Part shown: one piece after another, positions 11,475 to 62,377 of the stretch
How positions within the stretch are numbered: the stretch's first letter is position 1
Layout of the letters: the number at the start of each line of letters is the position of its first letter
DNA from: Promethearchaeia archaeon
GTDB lineage: Archaea; Asgardarchaeota; Lokiarchaeia; Sigyniarchaeales; SOKP01
Length of the DNA stretch: 64,000 nucleotides
Assembly: GCA_029856145.1 (NCBI GenBank)
Contig: JAHQWK010000024.1
Location: 43,131-107,130, forward strand
Direction of reading: 5' to 3'
The notes under the pieces: model-generated
The model's database searches: none
Told to the model about the DNA's origin: nothing
The model's input: only the letters and a program-made list of their open reading frames with translations
Position numbers and translations under genes: made by a program

Positions 11475-12383
11475 ATGGCTACTAAAATTCCACCTGATCA
11501 GATAGTTATTAGGCCTCCTGTAGAAGCTTATTCTGTTTTAATACCTGTAACAGGTGGATGTTCATGGAATAAATGCCGTTTCTGTGGAACTTATAAAGGC
11601 GTATATGGAGTTTCCCAAGACTATGCTATACGAACTTTAGAGGATGTAAAAAAGGATATTGATAAATATGCTGAGAGTAATTATCATGGTTTTCCTGTAT
11701 TTTTAGCAGGAGGTAATCCTACTTCCGCACCAACAGATTATTTAGTTGAAATTATTAAATATGTTAGAGTTAAGTTAAAAAATGTTCCACGAGTAAGTTG
11801 CTACGCTAAAGCTTTAGATGTTTTAAGAAAGTCAGATGAAGAATTAAAAGCGATAATGAATGCAGGATTAGATATAGTCTATATGGGATTAGAGAGTGGC
11901 TCAAATACCATATTAAGAATTATGAAAAAAGGAACTAATGCTGAATCTATGATAGAAGCAGGGAAGAAAATTCTAAATGCTGGAATTAAACTTTCATTAT
12001 ATATCATTTTAGGATTAGGAAGTCATAAATATTCAGAAGAACATGTGAAAGAAACTGCTAGAGTGTTAACTGAAATTAACCCAACTATTTTCCGGTTCAG
12101 AACCTTAAATATTTTACCTGGTACTCCACTTTGGGATGAATGGAAATCTGGTGAATTTAAACTATTGAGCCCATTGGAAAATATTACAGAAGAGAGAAAT
12201 ATCATAGCTAATTTAGGTGAAAATGTTACTTCTCAAGTCTTTAACGACCATGTGTCTAATTATTGTACGATAGAATCTTCTAATATAAAAGTAGATCGAG
12301 AAATGTTTATAAAAACCTTAGATTCTTATATTAATGACCCAAAAATCCAAAACTTGCCAAGAAAAAACTTAATAAGAATGTGA
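11475..12383 (+). CDS. Radical SAM protein (paralog of 734..1657)
   Basis: RPPVEAYSVLIPVTGGCSWNKCRFC, YMGLESG and DHVSNY motifs. Confidence 0.9.
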   Translation: MATKIPPDQIVIRPPVEAYSVLIPVTGGCSWNKCRFCGTYKGVYGVSQDYAIRTLEDVKKDIDKYAESNYHGFPVFLAGGNPTSAPTDYLVEIIKYVRVKLKNVPRVSCYAKALDVLRKSDEELKAIMNAGLDIVYMGLESGSNTILRIMKKGTNAESMIEAGKKILNAGIKLSLYIILGLGSHKYSEEHVKETARVLTEINPTIFRFRTLNILPGTPLWDEWKSGEFKLLSPLENITEERNIIANLGENVTSQVFNDHVSNYCTIESSNIKVDREMFIKTLDSYINDPKIQNLPRKNLIRM

Positions 12384-12414
12384 ATATTTGAGGATAGAAC
12401 AAATATAATCTTTT

Positions 12415-13491
12415 TTAAGCCTCAAGAACTTTATCCACCAGATCAATGAATTTTTTATATTTAGATATTGAACCTAAAAGGAATTCATATATTTTGTAAA
12501 TCCGGGTATAACCATTTAATTTTTCCAAAGTATTTCTATTTTCCTCAAGTTCTAGTCTTAGTTTTTGTAACTCATCATCCCATTTTGCCATTCTGTCAAT
12601 AACGGTTCTAGAGAATTTTAAAAGGATTATTCCCGCGGATTCAGCACAATACGTAATTTTACCTTTAGGTGAAATATCTGATTTCTCTATTAATCCATTT
12701 TCTAAAAGTAAGTTTACTTCTTCAGAAATCTTCCCTGCTGACAATCCGGTGATCCTTTGTAATGTTTTTTGGGTAAGCAATTTTCTTGTAATAAAGTACA
12801 CGAGAATCCTAATGAACATTGGATCTCGACTTGAAAACATGGGGGAAGTGGCAAGTTGATTTAACATATCATCCTCAACTAAATAAACTTCTGGGTCAAA
12901 AGAAATCTTCTTCACTTCTTCTTCTCTTCTAATCAAATTGAAAGATTTTGAAGATATATCTTTCAATGTTTCATTAGTTGAATTTTCTATCAATATTGGA
13001 AATATAATTTTATAAATTTCAAAAGTTTCAAGCAATTCATCAATTCTATTTGAGAGATGTTGCGCTCCTTTTTTAGATTGCTCAATAAATTTTATCAATT
13101 CTTCCTTTTTATTTTTCAAATAAGTTTCTAAAGGACCAAAAGTACTTAATGCAATTTCAATCCCTCTTGTTGTAAGATCTTCAAGCTTGCCGGTAAATGA
13201 ATATATAAATGTATGAGTGTGAGGAATACGTTCTTTTTGAAAAGTTCCAGTACCCGTCATAACTGATAAAATTGTTGATATAGAGCCCATTGAGAATCCC
13301 GTTAACTTTTTTAATTCCTTCTGGGTTAAACTTTCATGAATTAGTAAATAAGAAGAAATCATAGATATCTTTGGATTAACTCTTTTACTTTGAGCAATAT
13401 CTAATAAAAATTCTACAAGCTTATTTTCATATTTGCGAAGTTTATCACTAAAAAGATGACTAAAATTTTCTGTATCTTCTTCAACTGTCAT
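12415..13491 (-). CDS. Tandem two-domain GbsR/MarR-like wHTH transcription regulator
   Basis: Two HTH motifs: LTQKELKKLTGFSMGSISTIL and LTQKTLQRITGLSAGKISEEV. Confidence 0.85.
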   Translation of the reverse strand: MTVEEDTENFSHLFSDKLRKYENKLVEFLLDIAQSKRVNPKISMISSYLLIHESLTQKELKKLTGFSMGSISTILSVMTGTGTFQKERIPHTHTFIYSFTGKLEDLTTRGIEIALSTFGPLETYLKNKKEELIKFIEQSKKGAQHLSNRIDELLETFEIYKIIFPILIENSTNETLKDISSKSFNLIRREEEVKKISFDPEVYLVEDDMLNQLATSPMFSSRDPMFIRILVYFITRKLLTQKTLQRITGLSAGKISEEVNLLLENGLIEKSDISPKGKITYCAESAGIILLKFSRTVIDRMAKWDDELQKLRLELEENRNTLEKLNGYTRIYKIYEFLLGSISKYKKFIDLVDKVLEA

Positions 13492-13536
13492 TTCTTATTT
13501 AAATATAGGTTAAACAGGTTTATAAATGTTTTTATA

Positions 13537-13553
13537 TTTCAAACTTTATGAAA
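13537..13553. promoter_or_regulatory. Palindromic operator TTTCA-N7-TGAAA
   Basis: TTTCAAACTTTATGAAA between the divergent regulator and the Zn-finger gene; identical copy at 13988. Confidence 0.75.
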
Positions 13554-13623
13554 GGTGAAGAAAGTTAAATCTCTAATTTTTTTTAATTATCTTGATGAAG
13601 AAATTAAAAAAAAAGAAATTTTC

Positions 13624-13827
13624 ATGCCGGAAAAAGACACCAAATATAATCAAATTTTTGACATGGGGGATGTGAAATATAAGAAATGCCCCGTTTGCAA
13701 AAAGACGCGGGAGTATCCAGATGAGTTTCAGCCTGAGAGTCTATGCGTCTTTTGTACCGAGGATATCTTTACAGAGCCCGAGTTTTTTAAAATATATCTG
13801 AAAGCTATTAGAAAAGAATATGTTTAG
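13624..13827 (+). CDS. Small (67 aa) CxxC...CxxC zinc-binding protein
   Basis: CPVC...CVFC; ATG 13624 preferred; followed by a T8 run at 13851-13858. Confidence 0.7.
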   Translation: MPEKDTKYNQIFDMGDVKYKKCPVCKKTREYPDEFQPESLCVFCTEDIFTEPEFFKIYLKAIRKEYV

Positions 13828-13987
13828 CCTGTTCAGGATATGCACACTTATTTTTTTTCCAAGAACTAGCCAATAAATAATTAAGGAAAAATTAAAAGAA
13901 AATTATAGAATCTTTAGGATTAAGGTTTAATAAATAAATAGGATCCTACTATTTTTTCTACAGTTGTAATTAATAATTCTTTATAAT

Positions 13988-14133
13988 TTTCAAACTTTAT
14001 GAAACAGAAGTTTGAGCTATGATTCTGTTGCAAAATTCGTTTCACGACTTTTGAAAAATAAAAACATTTAAATATGTAGTTGATTATAATATTAATGGGT
14101 TTCATAACTTTTGAAACTTAAAAAATTATGAAA
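13988..14133. promoter_or_regulatory. Operator cluster (TTTCA-N7-TGAAA x3 plus one degenerate copy) flanking a TATA-like box
   Basis: Perfect sites at 13988-14004, 14040-14056 and 14100-14116; degenerate site at 14117-14133; TTTAAATA at 14067. Confidence 0.75.
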
Positions 14134-14150
14134 CTTCACATTCCCACCAA

Positions 14151-14873
14151 GTGTGTAAAAAAATGATTGAAATTATTTCTCAGGAAATATGGATTGGAGA
14201 TATTGATGCTAATATCAAAGAAGTAAAACCTGAACATATTTATTCAAGATGGGTTTTATTAATTGCGGGTATAAGTTATTTCATTGTATTTATTACAAGT
14301 ATATTAATAGCAATCTTTCTAGGACCTTTAGGTTATAATCCTTATTTTAATGCGATTAGCGATTTAGGGTCGTCTCATATTACTCCTGTGGCATTTCTTT
14401 TCGATAGTTCATGTTTCATCAGTCCTGGGTTTATAATTCCTTCCTTAATTATAATAGAGAAGAGGGTAGCCCCTGAATCTTTTTTTAATGGAATTAAGAA
14501 TAAGAGTGTATCATTAAAACAGAAATTTGCAGTCTTTGGAGTAGCCTTTGGACTTATTGGACTTATTGGATTGATTTTAGTAGGAGTCTTTAGTTTAGAT
14601 CGAGCAGGTCCAATGGGAATTTATCATGGGATTGCAGCAATATTAACTTTCGGAGGTTTTGTCCTTTGTATTTTCATATTTACTTTATGTTTAATTTGTT
14701 TTCGAGGCGAAATATCTAAAGTTTATGCAATAGCCACATCTTTACTTCCTATTATTATGCTATTTTTGTGGTTTTATACGAGAATCTTAATTTTTGAGTG
14801 GCTCTCTTATTTGTCAATCTTATCATACCTACTCTTTTTTCATTTTACTAATTTTAAGAGGGGAGGTTGGTAA
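14151..14873 (+). CDS. Multi-TM membrane protein, DUF998/Frag1-like
   Basis: About 6 TM segments; YNPYFNAISDLG and GIYHGIAA motifs; start may be ATG 14163. Confidence 0.7.
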   Translation: MCKKMIEIISQEIWIGDIDANIKEVKPEHIYSRWVLLIAGISYFIVFITSILIAIFLGPLGYNPYFNAISDLGSSHITPVAFLFDSSCFISPGFIIPSLIIIEKRVAPESFFNGIKNKSVSLKQKFAVFGVAFGLIGLIGLILVGVFSLDRAGPMGIYHGIAAILTFGGFVLCIFIFTLCLICFRGEISKVYAIATSLLPIIMLFLWFYTRILIFEWLSYLSILSYLLFFHFTNFKRGGW

Positions 14874-15106
14874 AATAGGGCTCTCTAACAGAAAAAATAA
14901 TTATTGACTTATAAAAAATTAGTTTTTCAAGCCTTAAGAACATTAATTAATAACCTATTTTTATTTACTTTTGATTTTAAGAAATTTCTTGAATACTAAG
15001 ACTTCCTTTTTTTTTATTACAAAAATAAATAATGTAGAGGTTTTAAGTTCTATTTTTAATTTATAAATGGAATTATTTTTTTAATTCAATTTATATAATT
15101 CGTAGA

Positions 15107-16411
15107 TTATATATCAAGGATTTCCTTCGTAATTGATAAGATTTCAACTTCATCAAACAAATTAGTCTTCCCAGTTTTTTTAAACAACTCAATTTGTTCA
15201 TGATAAAGCGTTTCAAAAAGATTAGTAAGATAATTAAGTCTTTCCTTAAAACTTGAATCTGATGGTTTAAATAGAAAACAGACTATTTCAATATATTTAC
15301 CGTAAACGGCTTGAACATAGAGACCTTTATAATTAATTTCTTCCATTTTTGAACCCCCAATTTGAGTTACAAATGAATCCATTGCTGTTAAAAAACCTGA
15401 TACTAATGCTTGTTCCTTGAAATTTTCACTGGCATAATTTATAATTGGCGTTCCACTAGTCTTTTCTATTATTATTAAATCTCTGAATATTTCCGAATAT
15501 TTTGGTTGATTAGCTTCTTTGAGCATTAATTTATTATGTTCTAAGTCATTGTAAATATCAAATAATCTAAAGTTATATGAGTCAAACGAATTTGTTTCGT
15601 TGAAATAATAATCTGATAATTTTATAACTTGTGAAGGAGCTCTCATTGGTTCTTTTGGAAGCTTTTTAATAAACTTATTTCGTATTTCAAGATCATAATT
15701 ATCGTTCTTTTTTCCTTTTCTTACACCGTAAACTATTTTCCGTGATGGATCAACTACATAAAGCCAACAATTCAAATCTTTCATGTCGTAAATTAAATTT
15801 TGTAATCCTAATTTAAGAACACCAATAGGAGTTGTTACAAAAATATTCCAACTCGCAACCTTTGCAGCTTCTTTTATTGATTCTTTTGTTTCAAGATAAG
15901 TCTTTTCATTAACATTAACACCATTCATGACGAATACAGCTGCGGTCTTTACTTTCGATTTTTTCATTGTTAAATACATGTCCATTTTAGGTGAAATTGA
16001 ATCATAGGAGGTATTATGAACTGTTGTTTCGAGATCAGCACAATGATCTGCAAAAGTTTCACTTAAATCTTGCTTTGCTATGAAATCTAAATGATATAGA
16101 TACCTCTTGAATGTTTTTGAATTAATGACTGCGTATCCACAATATTCCAAAGGGTTATCAAATCTTTTTTGCCAATCAGTTGAATTATATACATTAGTTA
16201 GGTGTGTTAAAATGAGTTTTATATATTCAAGTCTACTAACAAATGATTTTTCAGGAATAGTTATCCCATAATCCGCAATAAATTCTAACAATTCTTGAAT
16301 TTTGCAATTTATTAAAATATAATTAATAGAAAATAAACCAAATTTGCTTTTGCTTTTTTCTATAAGGTATTGAATTACATTATCCTCAGTAATTTCAGTT
16401 TCAGCGCTCAT
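15107..16411 (-). CDS. Protein with C-terminal longin/roadblock-like domain
   Basis: C-terminal LIIIEKTSGTPI...ALVSGFLTAMDSFVTQIGGSKMEEINY pattern typical of Asgard longin-like domains; N-terminal region unknown. Confidence 0.65.
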   Translation of the reverse strand: MSAETEITEDNVIQYLIEKSKSKFGLFSINYILINCKIQELLEFIADYGITIPEKSFVSRLEYIKLILTHLTNVYNSTDWQKRFDNPLEYCGYAVINSKTFKRYLYHLDFIAKQDLSETFADHCADLETTVHNTSYDSISPKMDMYLTMKKSKVKTAAVFVMNGVNVNEKTYLETKESIKEAAKVASWNIFVTTPIGVLKLGLQNLIYDMKDLNCWLYVVDPSRKIVYGVRKGKKNDNYDLEIRNKFIKKLPKEPMRAPSQVIKLSDYYFNETNSFDSYNFRLFDIYNDLEHNKLMLKEANQPKYSEIFRDLIIIEKTSGTPIINYASENFKEQALVSGFLTAMDSFVTQIGGSKMEEINYKGLYVQAVYGKYIEIVCFLFKPSDSSFKERLNYLTNLFETLYHEQIELFKKTGKTNLFDEVEILSITKEILDI

Positions 16412-16716
16412 TTTTCCACTAAACCCATCAAATTAATATCTAGTAAATTGTACAACTTTTACACCTAGGTTCTTCTATACAAATTTTATCTAATTAATAT
16501 ATACTAGAAATATATCTTTTCGTGATATCCGTATATATAATTTCATAAAATTTACTAAGGAAGAATTTGTAAAAATAATGATTTAGATTGTTCTAGCCCT
16601 ATTAAGCTTATAAAAAAAAAGAAAAATATGGAATAATTTTTAATAAATAAATGGAATTAATTTTTAAAACTTTTTTTTTATTTGAAAATATTTTAAATTC
16701 TCAATTCCCTTATAAT

Positions 16717-17229
16717 TTATTTTTCAAGAGATGCTAGTTCTTTTTCTAATACTTCAATTACTTTCATAGTTAAGGGTAGAGATGCTGTAAGTAATGTAAG
16801 GAGCTCATAAACATCAGTATAGCCGTAGAGATTTTCTATTTCATTTTTCTCTGCATTCATTTCTTTTTTTAATTCATTAAGCTCATTATAAAAATCAAAT
16901 ATTTCTTTTTGCGAATTAAAAAAATTCTTAATAATAGCTTTTTTGGGAGAATCCATTGAATAAGTAATCTCGCCTGTTCTAGATATTTTAGATTTCTCAA
17001 TAAATGCATTCTCAACTAGTTTTTTCAACTCCTGGGAAATCTTGCCTCGGGAAAATCCGGTTAGTTTATGTATCATATCTTGGGTTAGATTTTTCCTTGT
17101 AATGAAATAGGCCTTTATTGTGTAATATATGGACTTCTGAAAACCAAAAAGTGGAGCACTTAGTAGAAATTCTATTAACTCACCTTCAAAGTTCTTGATC
17201 TCATCATCAAATGGCTCATTTTCACTCAT
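16717..17229 (-). CDS. GbsR/MarR-like wHTH regulator (matches the C-half of 12415..13491)
   Basis: YFITRKNLTQDMIHKLTGFSRGKISQEL; ATGA overlap with the upstream gene. Confidence 0.85.
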   Translation of the reverse strand: MSENEPFDDEIKNFEGELIEFLLSAPLFGFQKSIYYTIKAYFITRKNLTQDMIHKLTGFSRGKISQELKKLVENAFIEKSKISRTGEITYSMDSPKKAIIKNFFNSQKEIFDFYNELNELKKEMNAEKNEIENLYGYTDVYELLTLLTASLPLTMKVIEVLEKELASLEK

Positions 17230-18011
17230 GAGTTTTCCCTCCCAAGGCCTTTTACGAATTCTGAATCAGTGATTAAACCAACTATTTTGCGGTGAAATTC
17301 TAAAAAAGAGAGAATCCCTTGAATTCTTTCTAATAAAATTTTATGGCCTTTTCTGAACTGAAAAGGCTCTAAATTTATAATCATTGATTGTAAAAACTTT
17401 TTAGTATACTCATTTGTTTCAAATTTATAGACGCTCGTACCTGAAGCAATTGCTGAAAAATCTCCTCCTAAAGAATATAAATATTTTCTAGTCCCCTTAA
17501 TCAATTCCTTTTTAAGAATTGGAGACGCTTCCATTAATTTCAAATTTTCAGAAATTGCACCCTTTGAAAGTCCTGTAAGCTCTTTCATTTGAGCCTGCGT
17601 TAAACCATTACGTTTATGTAAAAGTAGACAACCAATAATTGTGGCTAAAACATAATTTTGTCCTTTTAATTTGCCTGCCCTTACGAAGAATTTAATAACT
17701 CTTTTTTCATATTCACGGATCTTTCCCTCAAACATGTGAGATTTTCTTTCCACGTAATCCGAATAATCTTCATCAAGTCTTCGATTAATAACATTCCATA
17801 ATGATGTAAAATCTTCATTTGAGAGATCCAACTTATTAATTTTGTTTTTTAATTCGAGGATTAATTTTTCATTCCATATTGGATCAGTAAGAAAATCTTT
17901 AAGTTTTTCTTTTAGTAATTTGATATGCCCACCTTTATTATTCTCCAAATAATTCTGAGCAATTTTACCTATTATTTCCAATAAATTATTAATTTTCTTC
18001 TGATCAATCAT
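17226..18011 (-). CDS. GbsR/MarR-like wHTH regulator with N-terminal extension (matches the N-half of 12415..13491)
   Basis: LTQAQMKELTGLSKGAISENLKLM...GTRKYLY. Confidence 0.85.
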   Translation of the reverse strand: MIDQKKINNLLEIIGKIAQNYLENNKGGHIKLLKEKLKDFLTDPIWNEKLILELKNKINKLDLSNEDFTSLWNVINRRLDEDYSDYVERKSHMFEGKIREYEKRVIKFFVRAGKLKGQNYVLATIIGCLLLHKRNGLTQAQMKELTGLSKGAISENLKLMEASPILKKELIKGTRKYLYSLGGDFSAIASGTSVYKFETNEYTKKFLQSMIINLEPFQFRKGHKILLERIQGILSFLEFHRKIVGLITDSEFVKGLGRENS

Positions 18012-18099
18012 TACTGGTACAGCTAATAATATTAAACATCATTTTCTTTTAGTCTTTCCTATAAATAATATTGCTTTTCTATTATTTAAAGATTATGAA

Positions 18100-18196
18100 T
18101 TTCATAGATTGTGAAGTTCATAGGAAATGAAAATATTTAAATATGCAATTTCACTCTTAATAATTGTAAGATCTACTATTTTCATTATAAATGAAA
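18100..18196. promoter_or_regulatory. Operator cluster flanking a TATA-like box in the divergent promoter of the ABC exporter
   Basis: TTTCATAGATTGTGAAG (18100), GTTCATAGGAAATGAAA (18116) and TTTCATTATAAATGAAA (18180); TTTAAATA at 18136. Confidence 0.75.
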
Positions 18197-18213
18197 AATA
18201 AAAACAATAAAGG

Positions 18214-19179
18214 TTGATAAAAATGAATGCTATAGAGGTAAAAAATCTAATAAAATATTATGACAAAGGAAAAATTAAAGCTGTAGATGATATTTCATTT
18301 GAAGTGCCTCGAGGCTCTCGATTTGGTTATTTAGGACCAAATGGAGCTGGAAAAACTACCACGATTCGATGTATACTTGGTTTTCTCAACGCAGATGCGG
18401 GAGATATTACAATATTAGGTGAAAAGATTAATCCAAAAAAAGATGTAAAAATTCGGAATCATATTGGATATTTACCCGGCGAATTGGGACTATATAAAAA
18501 TATGACCGCAAATGATTTGATTAATTATTTTGCGAAGCTCTATGATATTGAAATAGATTGGAATTTTGTTAAAGAAGTAACAGAACGTCTTAAATTAGAT
18601 ATGAATCGAAAATTGGGCGTATTAAGCAAAGGTAATAAACAAAAAGTTGGTGTATTATCAGCTCTTATGGGAAAATTTGATGTGCTTATTATGGATGAAC
18701 CCACTTCAGGACTTGACCCATTGATGCAATTAGAATTTTATCGAATTGTATCTGAGAGACAGAAAGAATCAAAATGCACCGTATTTCTTTGTAGCCATGT
18801 GCTCGCAGAGGTAGAAAAATTCTGTGATAGAGTTGCAATCATAAAGAAAGGAAAAATTGCTGAAATATCTGATGTAAATGATCTAAAAGCAAAAAATTTG
18901 AAACATATAGAATTGATTTTTGAAACTCCAGGTAGTATGGAAGCATTTAAATCTCTTTTAGAAACTGAATATTCTGAATCAATCATAAAATATGAATTCC
19001 AGACTCAACTTGAATTTTTATTACCCCCTCATCAAGCCCGGAAAATATTATGTGAAATTAGCGAAAGAGACTGGGGTGGTGTTCCTGTAAAAGACTTCTC
19101 GATTAGACATTCCACACTAGAGAATATTTTTATGCAATATTATGAAGAGGGCAAATCAAAAGGAGGTAAAATCGCATGA
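18214..19179 (+). CDS. ABC-2 type exporter ATP-binding subunit
   Basis: Walker A GPNGAGKTT, signature LSKGNKQK, Walker B LIMDEPTSGLDP, H-loop CSH. Confidence 0.95.
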   Translation: MIKMNAIEVKNLIKYYDKGKIKAVDDISFEVPRGSRFGYLGPNGAGKTTTIRCILGFLNADAGDITILGEKINPKKDVKIRNHIGYLPGELGLYKNMTANDLINYFAKLYDIEIDWNFVKEVTERLKLDMNRKLGVLSKGNKQKVGVLSALMGKFDVLIMDEPTSGLDPLMQLEFYRIVSERQKESKCTVFLCSHVLAEVEKFCDRVAIIKKGKIAEISDVNDLKAKNLKHIELIFETPGSMEAFKSLLETEYSESIIKYEFQTQLEFLLPPHQARKILCEISERDWGGVPVKDFSIRHSTLENIFMQYYEEGKSKGGKIA

Positions 19180-19991
19180 AAGTATTGCAGATTGTATGGA
19201 AAGAATTAAAGAAGGATTACAAAAGTCTCTTAATTTTCACAGGTATTATGTCCCTTTTCTTCATGTGGTTTGTAACTTTTTTTGATCCTGAGCTATTTGC
19301 GGGTTTGGAGGAAGTTTTTGAGAGTTATCCGGAAGCAATCCGACAGATGATTGGAGAGTTTTATAATCTCGCTGAATTTGGAGGTTTTCTTAACGTTTAT
19401 TTATTTTCAATGTCGTGGTTCTACTTTGGAATATATTTTATTTTAAAGTCAGCACAGAACATCCCAAAAGAGATAGAGGATAAAACAATTGATTTGGTGT
19501 TGTCAAAGCCTATCCCACGGACGGAGTTTACTCTAGGTAAGTATCTAACCCATATAATCGAAATATTATTAATTTATTATGGTGTCATGATGAGCGTTCT
19601 TTTAGGAATATTGATATTTCCATCTGTAACTATCAATGGTATCTTTTTGAATGAAATAATTTTCGCATTTCTATATAATTTTATTTTTATGGTTACATTA
19701 ATAAGTACGGGGTTCTGTTTCTCTACTTTCTTATCTTCTAAAAAGGCATTAGCTTTAGGGTTAGGGGTGGTGATATTTTTCTACGCTGTAGGTCAATTTT
19801 GGAAATCATTTCCCGAAGTAGCACAAGAAATTAAACGTATCAGCATATTTTTCTATTCAGACATGTCAAATCTTCTCGTAAATCATGTTTGGGATAACGT
19901 CGGATTACATATTTTAGTCCTTTTAGGCTATTCTGTAGTATTAACAACATCTTCGGTTATAATATTTAATAAACGGGATATTCCCGTCTAA
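19176..19991 (+). CDS. ABC-2 type exporter permease
   Basis: Six TM segments; EIEDKTIDLVLSKPIPR...GKY motif; C-terminal FNKRDI; ATGA overlap with the ATPase gene. Confidence 0.92.
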   Translation: MKVLQIVWKELKKDYKSLLIFTGIMSLFFMWFVTFFDPELFAGLEEVFESYPEAIRQMIGEFYNLAEFGGFLNVYLFSMSWFYFGIYFILKSAQNIPKEIEDKTIDLVLSKPIPRTEFTLGKYLTHIIEILLIYYGVMMSVLLGILIFPSVTINGIFLNEIIFAFLYNFIFMVTLISTGFCFSTFLSSKKALALGLGVVIFFYAVGQFWKSFPEVAQEIKRISIFFYSDMSNLLVNHVWDNVGLHILVLLGYSVVLTTSSVIIFNKRDIPV

Positions 19992-20004
19992 ATTTATATT
20001 ATTC

Positions 20005-61162: not shown

Positions 61163-62377
61163 ATGGTAATAGTACGAAGAGAAAGAGTTCTTTTAGAAGC
61201 AACTAAGAACGAGTTTGAAAATCAGGCAGTATTAAACCCTACAGTTGTTCAGCAAGGAGATACATTGCATTTGTTTTATCGCGCTGTAAAAGAAGGAAAT
61301 TATTCAAGTATTGGTTATTGTAAATTAGAAGGACCCTTGAATATTGTAGAAAGAAAAAAAAGTCCTATTTTGTTTCCTGAACATGATTATGAAATACATG
61401 GTACGGAAGATCCTAGAATCGTTTTTCTTGATGGTACTTATTATATGTTTTACACGGCTTATGATGGAAAAAATGCATTAGCAGCATACGCGACTAGTAA
61501 AGACCTTAAAGTGTGGGAAAAGCATGGAATAATTTCAGCTAAAATGAAATACGATGAAGCAGGGCATTTTTTTCATTTATCAAAACTAAAAGAAAAATAC
61601 CATTTCTTTATATCATATTATAAGGATGTCGTTGCTGAAGATGTACTCTTATGGGAAAAAGATTCATTCATTTTTCCAATAAAATTTAATAATAAGTTTG
61701 CACTGATTCATAGAATATTACCTGATATTCAAATTGTTTGTTTCGATGATTTTAAAGATTTGACAACCGATTTCTGGAAGGATTATCTAAAAACATTAGG
61801 TGAACATGTTGTAATGGAGCCAAAATTTGGATACGAATCAAGAAATATCGGTGCTGGAGCACCATTAATAGAAACTGAAAGAGGTTGGCTCATGTTATAT
61901 CATTCTGTAGAGGATTCTAATAAAGGTAAGGTGTATCACGCAAGTGTCGCCCTCCTTGATAAAAAAAATCCGTTTAAGGTAATAGGACGACTTAAAGAAC
62001 CTCTTTTTTCGCCAACCGAAGATTATGAAAAATTTGGAGATGTAAATAATGTTGTTTTCCCCACAGGCACCGCAATATTTGGAGATAGACTATATATTTA
62101 TTATGGTGCCGCTGATAAGAGAATAGCCGTAGCATCGGTAAATCTGTATAAACTTCTTCACGAACTCTTGGCGTCTGAAGTAGAAGTCGGGATTGGTTTT
62201 TTAGCAGGACAGATTTTTAATCTTACATTAAAAGAAGAACAAAGTTTAACTCACCTTAAGAATTTATTGCATCAAAACGAAAAAGTTTTACTAATGGCAA
62301 TTGGTTGGCTAACAAGGGAAAATAAAGTTCTGTGTAGATTTGATTCAGATGAATTATTCGTTAGATCTCTAAGGTAA
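61163..62377 (+). CDS. GH130-like (PH1107-type) beta-propeller glycosidase/phosphorylase fused to a C-terminal DUF2582-like wHTH
   Basis: VLNP, YRA, EDPRI, YTAYDG, NVVFPTG and YYGAAD motifs; tail IGFLAGQIF...MAIGWLTRENKV. Confidence 0.88.
   Translation: MVIVRRERVLLEATKNEFENQAVLNPTVVQQGDTLHLFYRAVKEGNYSSIGYCKLEGPLNIVERKKSPILFPEHDYEIHGTEDPRIVFLDGTYYMFYTAYDGKNALAAYATSKDLKVWEKHGIISAKMKYDEAGHFFHLSKLKEKYHFFISYYKDVVAEDVLLWEKDSFIFPIKFNNKFALIHRILPDIQIVCFDDFKDLTTDFWKDYLKTLGEHVVMEPKFGYESRNIGAGAPLIETERGWLMLYHSVEDSNKGKVYHASVALLDKKNPFKVIGRLKEPLFSPTEDYEKFGDVNNVVFPTGTAIFGDRLYIYYGAADKRIAVASVNLYKLLHELLASEVEVGIGFLAGQIFNLTLKEEQSLTHLKNLLHQNEKVLLMAIGWLTRENKVLCRFDSDELFVRSLR

Follow-up and report, generated by a model that had tools for sequence, protein, structure and literature searches.

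Conserved TTTCA-N7-TGAAA palindromes at an Asgard archaeal locus, candidate operators of GbsR/MarR-like winged helix-turn-helix regulators

The locus described here belongs to a 64,000-nt stretch of DNA (below, the window; G000:C24:43131-107130) from a genome of 3.55 Mb and 30% GC (G000), and homologs of the window proteins carry the labels Promethearchaeota or Lokiarchaeia (Asgard archaea). It contains genes for three winged helix-turn-helix (wHTH) proteins, namely the single-chain regulator A and the pair F and E, together with genes encoding a Zn-ribbon protein (B), a membrane protein (C), a protein D and an ATP-binding cassette (ABC) exporter followed by an IMPDH gene. The intergenic regions harbor repeated 17-bp palindromes TTTCA-N7-TGAAA, candidate operators of these regulators (Table 1).

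Perfect palindromes start at positions 13537, 13988, 14040, 14100 and 18180, exactly where the initial annotation had placed them, and the first two are, as it claimed, the same over all 17 nt. Two copies that it had described as near-perfect (18100 and 18116) carry one mismatch each, and their degenerate neighbours are indeed weak, with two (14117) and three (18084) mismatches. All seven good sites are intergenic and lie upstream of the genes that had been named, i.e. the 358-aa regulator, the Zn-ribbon gene, the 236-aa membrane gene, the 261-aa and 170-aa pair and the ABC operon; the two promoters in which sites flank a TATA-like element indeed share its sequence, ATTTAAATATG (14066-14076 and 18135-18145). 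The early estimate of less than one chance match per 64 kb holds as well, since shuffled sequences give an expectation of 0.64 perfect palindromes per window, compared to six observed. The sixth palindrome (61533-61549), absent from the initial annotation, is located within a 404-aa open reading frame (ORF; 61163-62377) and is probably a chance match.

Table 1. Features of the locus (window coordinates). TATA, TATA-like element; PWM, position weight matrix; AF2, AlphaFold2.
Feature	Coordinates	Strand	Basis
A, 358-aa single-chain regulator with two wHTH halves, GbsR/MarR-like	12415..13491	-	PF12802, AF2, Foldseek
TATA-like box in the promoter of A, 27 nt from ATG; sequence in the direction of A, ATTTATAAA	13519..13527	-	sequence
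S1, perfect palindrome, 9 nt from the TATA of A, between the divergently oriented genes of A and the Zn-ribbon protein	13537..13553		scan and orthologs
B, 67-aa Zn-ribbon protein, two CxxC pairs	13624..13827	+	sequence
S2, perfect palindrome identical to S1, within the 35-nt direct repeat of the S1 module	13988..14004		scan
S3, perfect palindrome, 9 nt upstream of the membrane-gene TATA	14040..14056		scan
TATA-like element ATTTAAATATG, membrane-gene promoter	14066..14076	+	sequence
S4, perfect palindrome covering the predicted start site; the TATA octamer lies 25 nt before it	14100..14116		scan
S4', degenerate copy abutting S4, 2 mismatches, PWM score 9.9	14117..14133		scan
C, 236-aa polytopic membrane protein	14163..14873	+	ORF; DUF998/Frag1-like by atlas only
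D, 434 aa, no Pfam family	15107..16411	-	ORF
E, wHTH protein of 170 aa, homologous to the C-terminal half of A	16717..17229	-	alignment
F, 261-aa wHTH protein, homology to the N-terminal half of A over residues about 75-261	17226..18011	-	alignment
S5, one-mismatch palindrome, one base in common with S6	18100..18116		scan
S6, one-mismatch palindrome, 2 nt from TATA; S5 and S6 form operator O1	18116..18132		scan and alignment
TATA-like element ATTTAAATATG, ABC promoter	18135..18145	+	sequence and alignment
S7 (operator O2), perfect palindrome; approximate position +14 to +30 relative to the predicted ABC transcript start	18180..18196		scan
ABC ATPase	18223..19179	+	PF00005
ABC-2 permease	19176..19991	+	PF12679

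In the whole genome there are 34 perfect TTTCA-N7-TGAAA sequences, ten of them intergenic, and five of these ten fall within the 4.7 kb considered here. The number of N7 copies does not exceed that for other spacers (34 vs 23-60 for spacers N0-N15), and thus the motif is not a genome-wide word; it is the clustering that is unusual, with five of the 34 genomic copies within 4.66 kb (approximate scan-statistic P about 4e-6). A PWM trained on sites from relatives only, and then run over the whole genome, identified positions 13988-14133 as the best cluster, and the three top intergenic clusters all belong to this locus. The same PWM and cluster scan, applied to the complete G000 genome in search of further regulon members, found no intergenic cluster elsewhere, and most single PWM matches outside the locus lie in coding DNA. 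Part of the local arrangement consists of direct repeats: segments 13519-13553 and 13970-14004 (35 nt, 83% identical), each comprising a TATA-like box and a palindrome, lie on both sides of B, suggesting either an insertion of B or a duplication of the promoter module through recombination between operator cassettes.

The initial annotation had proposed conservation upstream of orthologs as a check, and in relatives from the same genus this conservation is strong. Orthologs of A were found in 23 of 24 same-genus genomes (57-80% identity). All 17 of those with available upstream sequence are preceded by a palindrome with at most one mismatch, 14 of them by a perfect one, usually located about 40-60 nt before the start codon and up to about 100 nt in some genomes. 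The half-sites are constant, while the spacers vary (AATTTCA, GCTTTTT, AAAATTT, ATTATTT, ACTCTTT, AACTTTA). In 11 genomes a gap of 3-4 nt separates the end of the site from the sequence TTTAAATA, which in turn ends about 29 nt before the ATG codon of the A ortholog.

The second regulator gene region behaves similarly, with a palindrome (at most one mismatch) in the F-to-ABC intergenic regions of all 15 relatives. The alignment of these regions, 16 sequences with G000 included, reveals invariant blocks: the double site O1, a TATA element that follows it at a distance of 1-4 nt, and, about 40 nt beyond, O2. The O1 sequence is TTTCAtcTTTCATGAAAaaTGAAg in many genomes, and the conserved O2 block of the relatives is TTTTAttattcaTGAAA; in G000, S5 together with S6 occupy the position of the relatives' O1. 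The sequence TTTA(A/T)ATA at the position of the ABC TATA is retained in 15 of the 16 aligned sequences, the remaining one, from G004, reading TTTTTATA. In closer relatives O1 is preceded by a TATA-like box facing F. On the left side of O1, G000 differs from the relatives by a rearrangement of the DNA. Autoregulation, as suggested in the initial annotation, is predicted from the position and conservation of palindromes in or near the promoters of the regulators themselves.

The specificity of these observations was assessed in 20 loci of relatives, comprising 6.2 kb upstream of regulator genes (81% AT) and 28.5 kb of other intergenic DNA (79% AT). Upstream of the regulators there are 22 perfect sites and 54 sites with at most one mismatch, compared to zero and seven, respectively, in the other intergenic regions (8.7 vs 0.25 sites per kb at the one-mismatch level). 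Hexamer enrichment calculated with no prior knowledge of the motif yields TCATGA (21-fold) and TTTCAT (6.8-fold). The only spacings observed between TTTCA and TGAAA are N0, N7 and N14, with N7 dominant. Moreover, a TATA-like octamer is found within 14 nt of 57% of sites, compared to 9% of other positions in the same regions, and 42% of TTTAAATA occurrences are intergenic, while intergenic DNA constitutes 13% of the genome.

The motif also follows a target gene to an unlinked position. The only close homolog of C (40% identity) is encoded in G014, on a different contig and next to genes for ribosomal proteins and RpoN, and its promoter (locus L043) consists of a site, 2 nt, ATTTAAATATG, 24 nt and another site, repeating the S3-TATA-S4 plan; S4' has no counterpart there. 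Other pairs of sites 55-62 bp apart surround the same TATA element in relatives, and the sequence ATTTAAATA (the first 9-10 bases of ATTTAAATATG) occurs in two further loci, L098 of G005 and L100 of G014. One such pair lies upstream of a gene for a 570-aa alpha/beta hydrolase (G005), another upstream of a gene that encodes a PlsY-like membrane protein of 384 aa and is accompanied by a divergent DUF3795 gene (G014), and the third belongs to an unassigned region. The hydrolase and the PlsY-like protein were compared with C and are not its homologs, and hence the membership of the regulon turns over. The centre-to-centre distances of paired sites, checked for helical phasing, are 55-64 bp and not constant, so we make no claim of looping.

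Similar sites accompany more distant regulators. In more distant members of the genus, A and a second ABC-2 exporter (about 40% identity) are divergently oriented and the site lies between them, and in G011 a split pair occupies the position of A. Fused paralogs (27-30% identity) and regulators from other genera of the order are associated with TTTCA-N7-TGAAA-like sites abutting TATA. In particular, a fused paralog with 27% identity (L094, G010:C9:1600-4600) has TTTCA-N7-CGAAA twice in the same orientation; such unequal half-sites would be expected if the halves of the single chain read different half-sites. In the genus g2 the motif is absent, and the recognition helix of the N-terminal half is different there (PKSKVS in place of S.G.IS).

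Several isolated matches in G000 were considered and rejected. The best candidate outside the locus, at C27:15907-15923 (L041/L062), has the sequence TTTCATTATTCATGAAG and directly adjoins a TATA-like box, about 107 nt upstream of the gene of a third DrrA-like ABC ATPase; it was dropped because it is not conserved upstream of two orthologs with 79% identity. The matches C9:227112, C6:23280 (between convergent genes) and C3:206732 are chance-like or situated outside promoters. The first of them (C9:227112-227128) is the top single PWM match in the genome; it is an isolated site that closely follows the stop codon of an enoyl-CoA hydratase-like gene, about 41 nt upstream of a peptidase-T-like gene.

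The initial annotation had called the regulators GbsR/MarR-like. Its MarR part agrees with Pfam, in which A scores 32.0 bits against PF12802 (MarR_2) with a gathering cutoff of 27, and hence carries a MarR-superfamily domain. E and F score 19-20 bits with MarR-type Pfam models, below the cutoffs, and both are homologous to halves of A: E is 34-35% identical to the C-terminal half, while F aligns through residues about 75-261 with the N-terminal half, and the start of E overlaps the end of F by 4 nt. The two wHTH heads are supplied either by a single polypeptide (A) or by the products of two genes (F and E), and the motif LTQ..TG.S.G.IS, spanning helix 2 and the recognition helix, is common to all four wHTH modules. 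F carries about 80 additional N-terminal residues compared to its 170-186-aa orthologs in the relatives.

The AF2 model of A (built from 46 sequences; pLDDT 85, pTM 0.80) consists of two wHTH and helical modules. In Foldseek searches, single halves of A match 1ku9_A (Mj223; probability 1.00, TM 0.56 on the target, 146 columns) and 4NB5 (TM 0.64-0.66), in agreement with an Mj223-like fold, that is, an N-terminal wHTH head followed by a C-terminal helical domain. The whole chain matches tandem winged-helix proteins, RPC62 and SarS, with a poor global fit. The GbsR part of the name is supported by fold and by the JGI automatic name of the homologs (GbsR), while membership of the GbsR subfamily (COG1510) is not demonstrated at the sequence level: the NCBIfam CudC model (GbsR-type) yields 26.5 bits with a cutoff of 218, the hit of F to this model, below the cutoff, having E=5e-6, the sole weak phmmer match among the regulators is 1KU9 (E=0.04), and a sequence-profile search of PDB with 46 homologs produced no match. 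Given these weak sequence links to GbsR models, we refer to the proteins as MarR-superfamily regulators, GbsR/Mj223-like in fold only.

Among the prospective targets, the ABC exporter is DrrA/GldA-like, and its orthologs (74-88% identity) are always divergent from the F-E pair. For C, the name DUF998-like given in the initial annotation is supported by a language-model atlas (score 0.95 to Asgard DUF998 clusters, with Frag1-DRAM-Sfk1-like clusters also matched) and not by Pfam, in which C has no match at E<=1. Its family has five members in G000 (14163-14873 in the window, C22:99842, C30:3371, C30:4228 and C28:52247), none of them with a Pfam match; some family members in the relatives are part of open frames of about 640 aa. 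A homolog of B in G017 (76% identity; L033 5470-5670) is located directly downstream of the ABC-2 permease, before IMPDH, and may there be part of the exporter operon; B itself is an uncertain member of the regulon. D is a recurrent neighbour of A in several relatives (76-88% identity), with no palindrome upstream. The description of the whole as an export/membrane-stress module comes from gene content and is tentative.

TTTCA-N7-TGAAA is a real, conserved cis-regulatory motif, as is seen from its sites, their clustering and conservation, the adjacency to TATA and the linkage to regulator genes. We consider it likely, judging from the sequences, that the palindromes are operators of the local GbsR/MarR-like wHTH regulators. 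This was the claim of the initial annotation as well, and its operator part is supported, the motif being conserved upstream of orthologs and following both the unlinked target gene and the paralogs; the sign of regulation, like binding, heterodimer formation and ligand control, is predicted. According to the proposed mechanism, the operator unit would comprise two TTTCA half-sites with centres 12 bp apart, and each regulator, either A or the F-E heterodimer, would offer two heads with the shared recognition-helix motif S-x-G-x-I-S, each head reading one half-site. The sites adjoining TATA, namely S1 and S3 (at 9 nt) and S6 (at 2 nt), would cover the TFB recognition element (BRE), while S4 and S7 would cover or follow the predicted start region. 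With sites placed against TATA/BRE and over or after the predicted start, the bound protein should block the TATA-binding protein (TBP) and transcription factor B (TFB), or RNA polymerase. Genes likely to be repressed in this way are those of both regulators, the divergent ABC-2 exporter and the DUF998-like membrane protein, and a ligand would release the protein, leading to derepression.

Several considerations weigh against this interpretation. Sites directly upstream of TATA can activate transcription in some archaeal systems. The motif core has low information content in a genome with 30% GC, with single matches occurring in coding DNA, and the duplicated 31-35-nt promoter modules, each with TATA and a site, account for part of the local repetition. 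Positions relative to +1 are based on predicted starts, derived from the textbook archaeal TATA centre at -26/-27; the genome-wide distribution of TATA-to-ATG distances is flat, with no sharp peak by which start sites could be calibrated, the only peak in this survey being Shine-Dalgarno-like, at -14 to -10. The operators are assigned to A and to F and E jointly, not site by site. Finally, as the relatives are kin, the counts overstate independence; still, the turnover of spacers and the unlinked and paralog cases are not explained by inheritance alone.

The interpretation of the sites as repressor operators has to be compared with other explanations of the same pattern. For archaeal factors such as SurR and TrmBL1, the position of the site decides the sign of regulation, and the local regulators could bind the sites and mainly activate, recruiting TBP/TFB from upstream of TATA. 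The location of the site 2-4 nt upstream of TATA, seen in O1 of the ABC promoters and, for A, in the promoters from 11 relatives, would be compatible with such activation, which we nevertheless regard as unlikely: a gap of 2-4 nt between the site and TATA leaves no room for a free BRE, target promoters have an additional site that covers or follows the predicted start (S4, S7, O2, L043, L098), and the MarR/GbsR relatives are repressors (PMC7396694). It is even less probable that the palindrome is read by a factor encoded elsewhere, or is a specialised core-promoter element, and that the linkage to GbsR-like genes is incidental. Paired sites at unlinked genes in the relatives and single high-scoring matches elsewhere in G000 are in line with this possibility, but the motif tracks the regulators through orthologs, paralogs with 27-30% identity, split and fused forms and other genera, is near-absent from the other intergenic DNA of the same loci (no perfect sites and seven with at most one mismatch), and forms no other clusters in the genome.

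A nonfunctional origin, in which matches arising by chance in AT-rich DNA were multiplied by recent local duplication of promoter segments, agrees with the inclusion of S1 and S2 in the 35-nt repeats, of S1/S3 and S3/S4 in 31-nt repeats, and with the lack of a genome-wide N7 excess. It is very improbable, being largely refuted by the ortholog conservation, the ABC promoter alignment and the intergenic control: the half-sites are kept while the spacers diverge, both between loci encoding proteins 57-80% identical and across promoters that cannot be aligned, the enrichment over matched intergenic DNA is 35-fold, and the spacings are strictly N0/N7/N14. The palindromes might also act not as DNA sites but as RNA hairpins in 5' leaders, serving as attenuators or stability elements, and indeed the folding of S4 together with S4', and that of the ABC leader, is more favourable than in shuffled sequences (z = -3.1 and -3.5). 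We hold this for extremely improbable, as many sites are situated upstream of TATA and would escape transcription, a single site yields a 5-bp A/U-rich stem (-5.5 kcal/mol, z = -1.1), and the S4/S4' hairpin is missing from the G014 ortholog; an Rfam scan of positions 12000-20000 found no match.

If the palindromes are operators of the wHTH regulators, a broader and much more speculative scheme can be outlined, which we consider rather doubtful. Fused and split regulators might share one operator code and run a membrane/lipid homeostasis regulon with fast-changing membership, in which case the unequal half-sites of L094 would demonstrate recognition of a separate half-site by each half of the pseudo-dimer. 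Candidate members would be the ABC-2 exporters and the DUF998/Frag1-DRAM-like protein and, in sister species, the PlsY-like acyltransferase and the membrane-anchored alpha/beta hydrolase. Were this true, the family would provide, in the archaea most closely related to eukaryotes, a natural system for the study of asymmetric recognition of operators.

A literature search found no described pair of a transcription factor and its operator for Asgard archaea. Since the motif is conserved across related genomes, the locus offers a testable regulator-operator pair of this kind, with a 17-bp site, fused and split protein architectures, promoters in which sites flank TATA, and a small and conserved set of target genes; it can be tested with recombinant proteins, culture of the organism not being needed. 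If binding and release by a ligand prove true, the promoter-operator cassette could be used as a controllable expression element in Asgard genetics. Moreover, the fused and split forms would exemplify the transition of a homodimeric MarR-type fold to a heterodimer and further to a single chain.

Among archaeal regulators, repressors acting at TATA/BRE or at the start site include Lrs14, MDR1, LrpA and the TrmB family, and the FL11 site is TGAAA-WWW-TTTCA. The logic that we propose is the same, a protein over BRE/TATA or +1 blocking the pre-initiation complex; Lrs14, MDR1, LrpA, TrmB and FL11, however, belong to other protein families, none of them known from Asgard archaea, and the FL11 half-sites are reversed and spaced by 3 bp. 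The best single-domain structural match to A is also archaeal, Mj223 from Methanocaldococcus jannaschii (PDB 1KU9), although it is a 151-aa homodimer, unlike A or F with E. To our knowledge, Mj223 has no known operator or regulon. None turned up in PMC6207618.

The GbsR and OpcR proteins of Bacillus subtilis (PMC7396694, PMC6207618) resemble the regulators described here in having a wHTH head and a C-terminal helical domain, present in each half of A as in Mj223, the template for GbsR. They repress transcription at A/T-rich inverted repeats, GbsR as a roadblock and OpcR by promoter occlusion (PMC7396694), and in both systems such repeats are located at, or downstream of, the promoter of an ABC transporter operon. 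The differences are that GbsR and OpcR are homodimers acting on osmoprotectant importers, while the regulators here are a fused chain and the products of a gene pair, and an ABC-2 exporter takes the place of the importer; that GbsR half-sites are 4 bp apart, compared to N7 here; and that the promoters at our locus are of the archaeal TATA/BRE type.

The arrangement of two MarR/SarA-like wHTH halves in one polypeptide, mimicking a dimer, is known from SarS (PDB 1P4X), a two-domain SarA homolog. SarS is bacterial and has no adjacent split two-gene counterpart, and its superposition is poor (TMq 0.22, rmsd 19 A), so that the resemblance is an analogy, not family membership. The closest parallel in circuit design is provided by MarR-marO systems, in which palindromic operators in a shared intergenic region likewise target the regulator's own gene and a divergent exporter; at our locus the sites abut an archaeal TATA and not -35/-10 elements, and the regulator is a pseudo-dimer or, as predicted, a heterodimer. 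As far as can be judged from sequence, this is a lineage-specific Asgard regulator family operating within a textbook MarR-type circuit, in an unusual host and with an unusual protein architecture.

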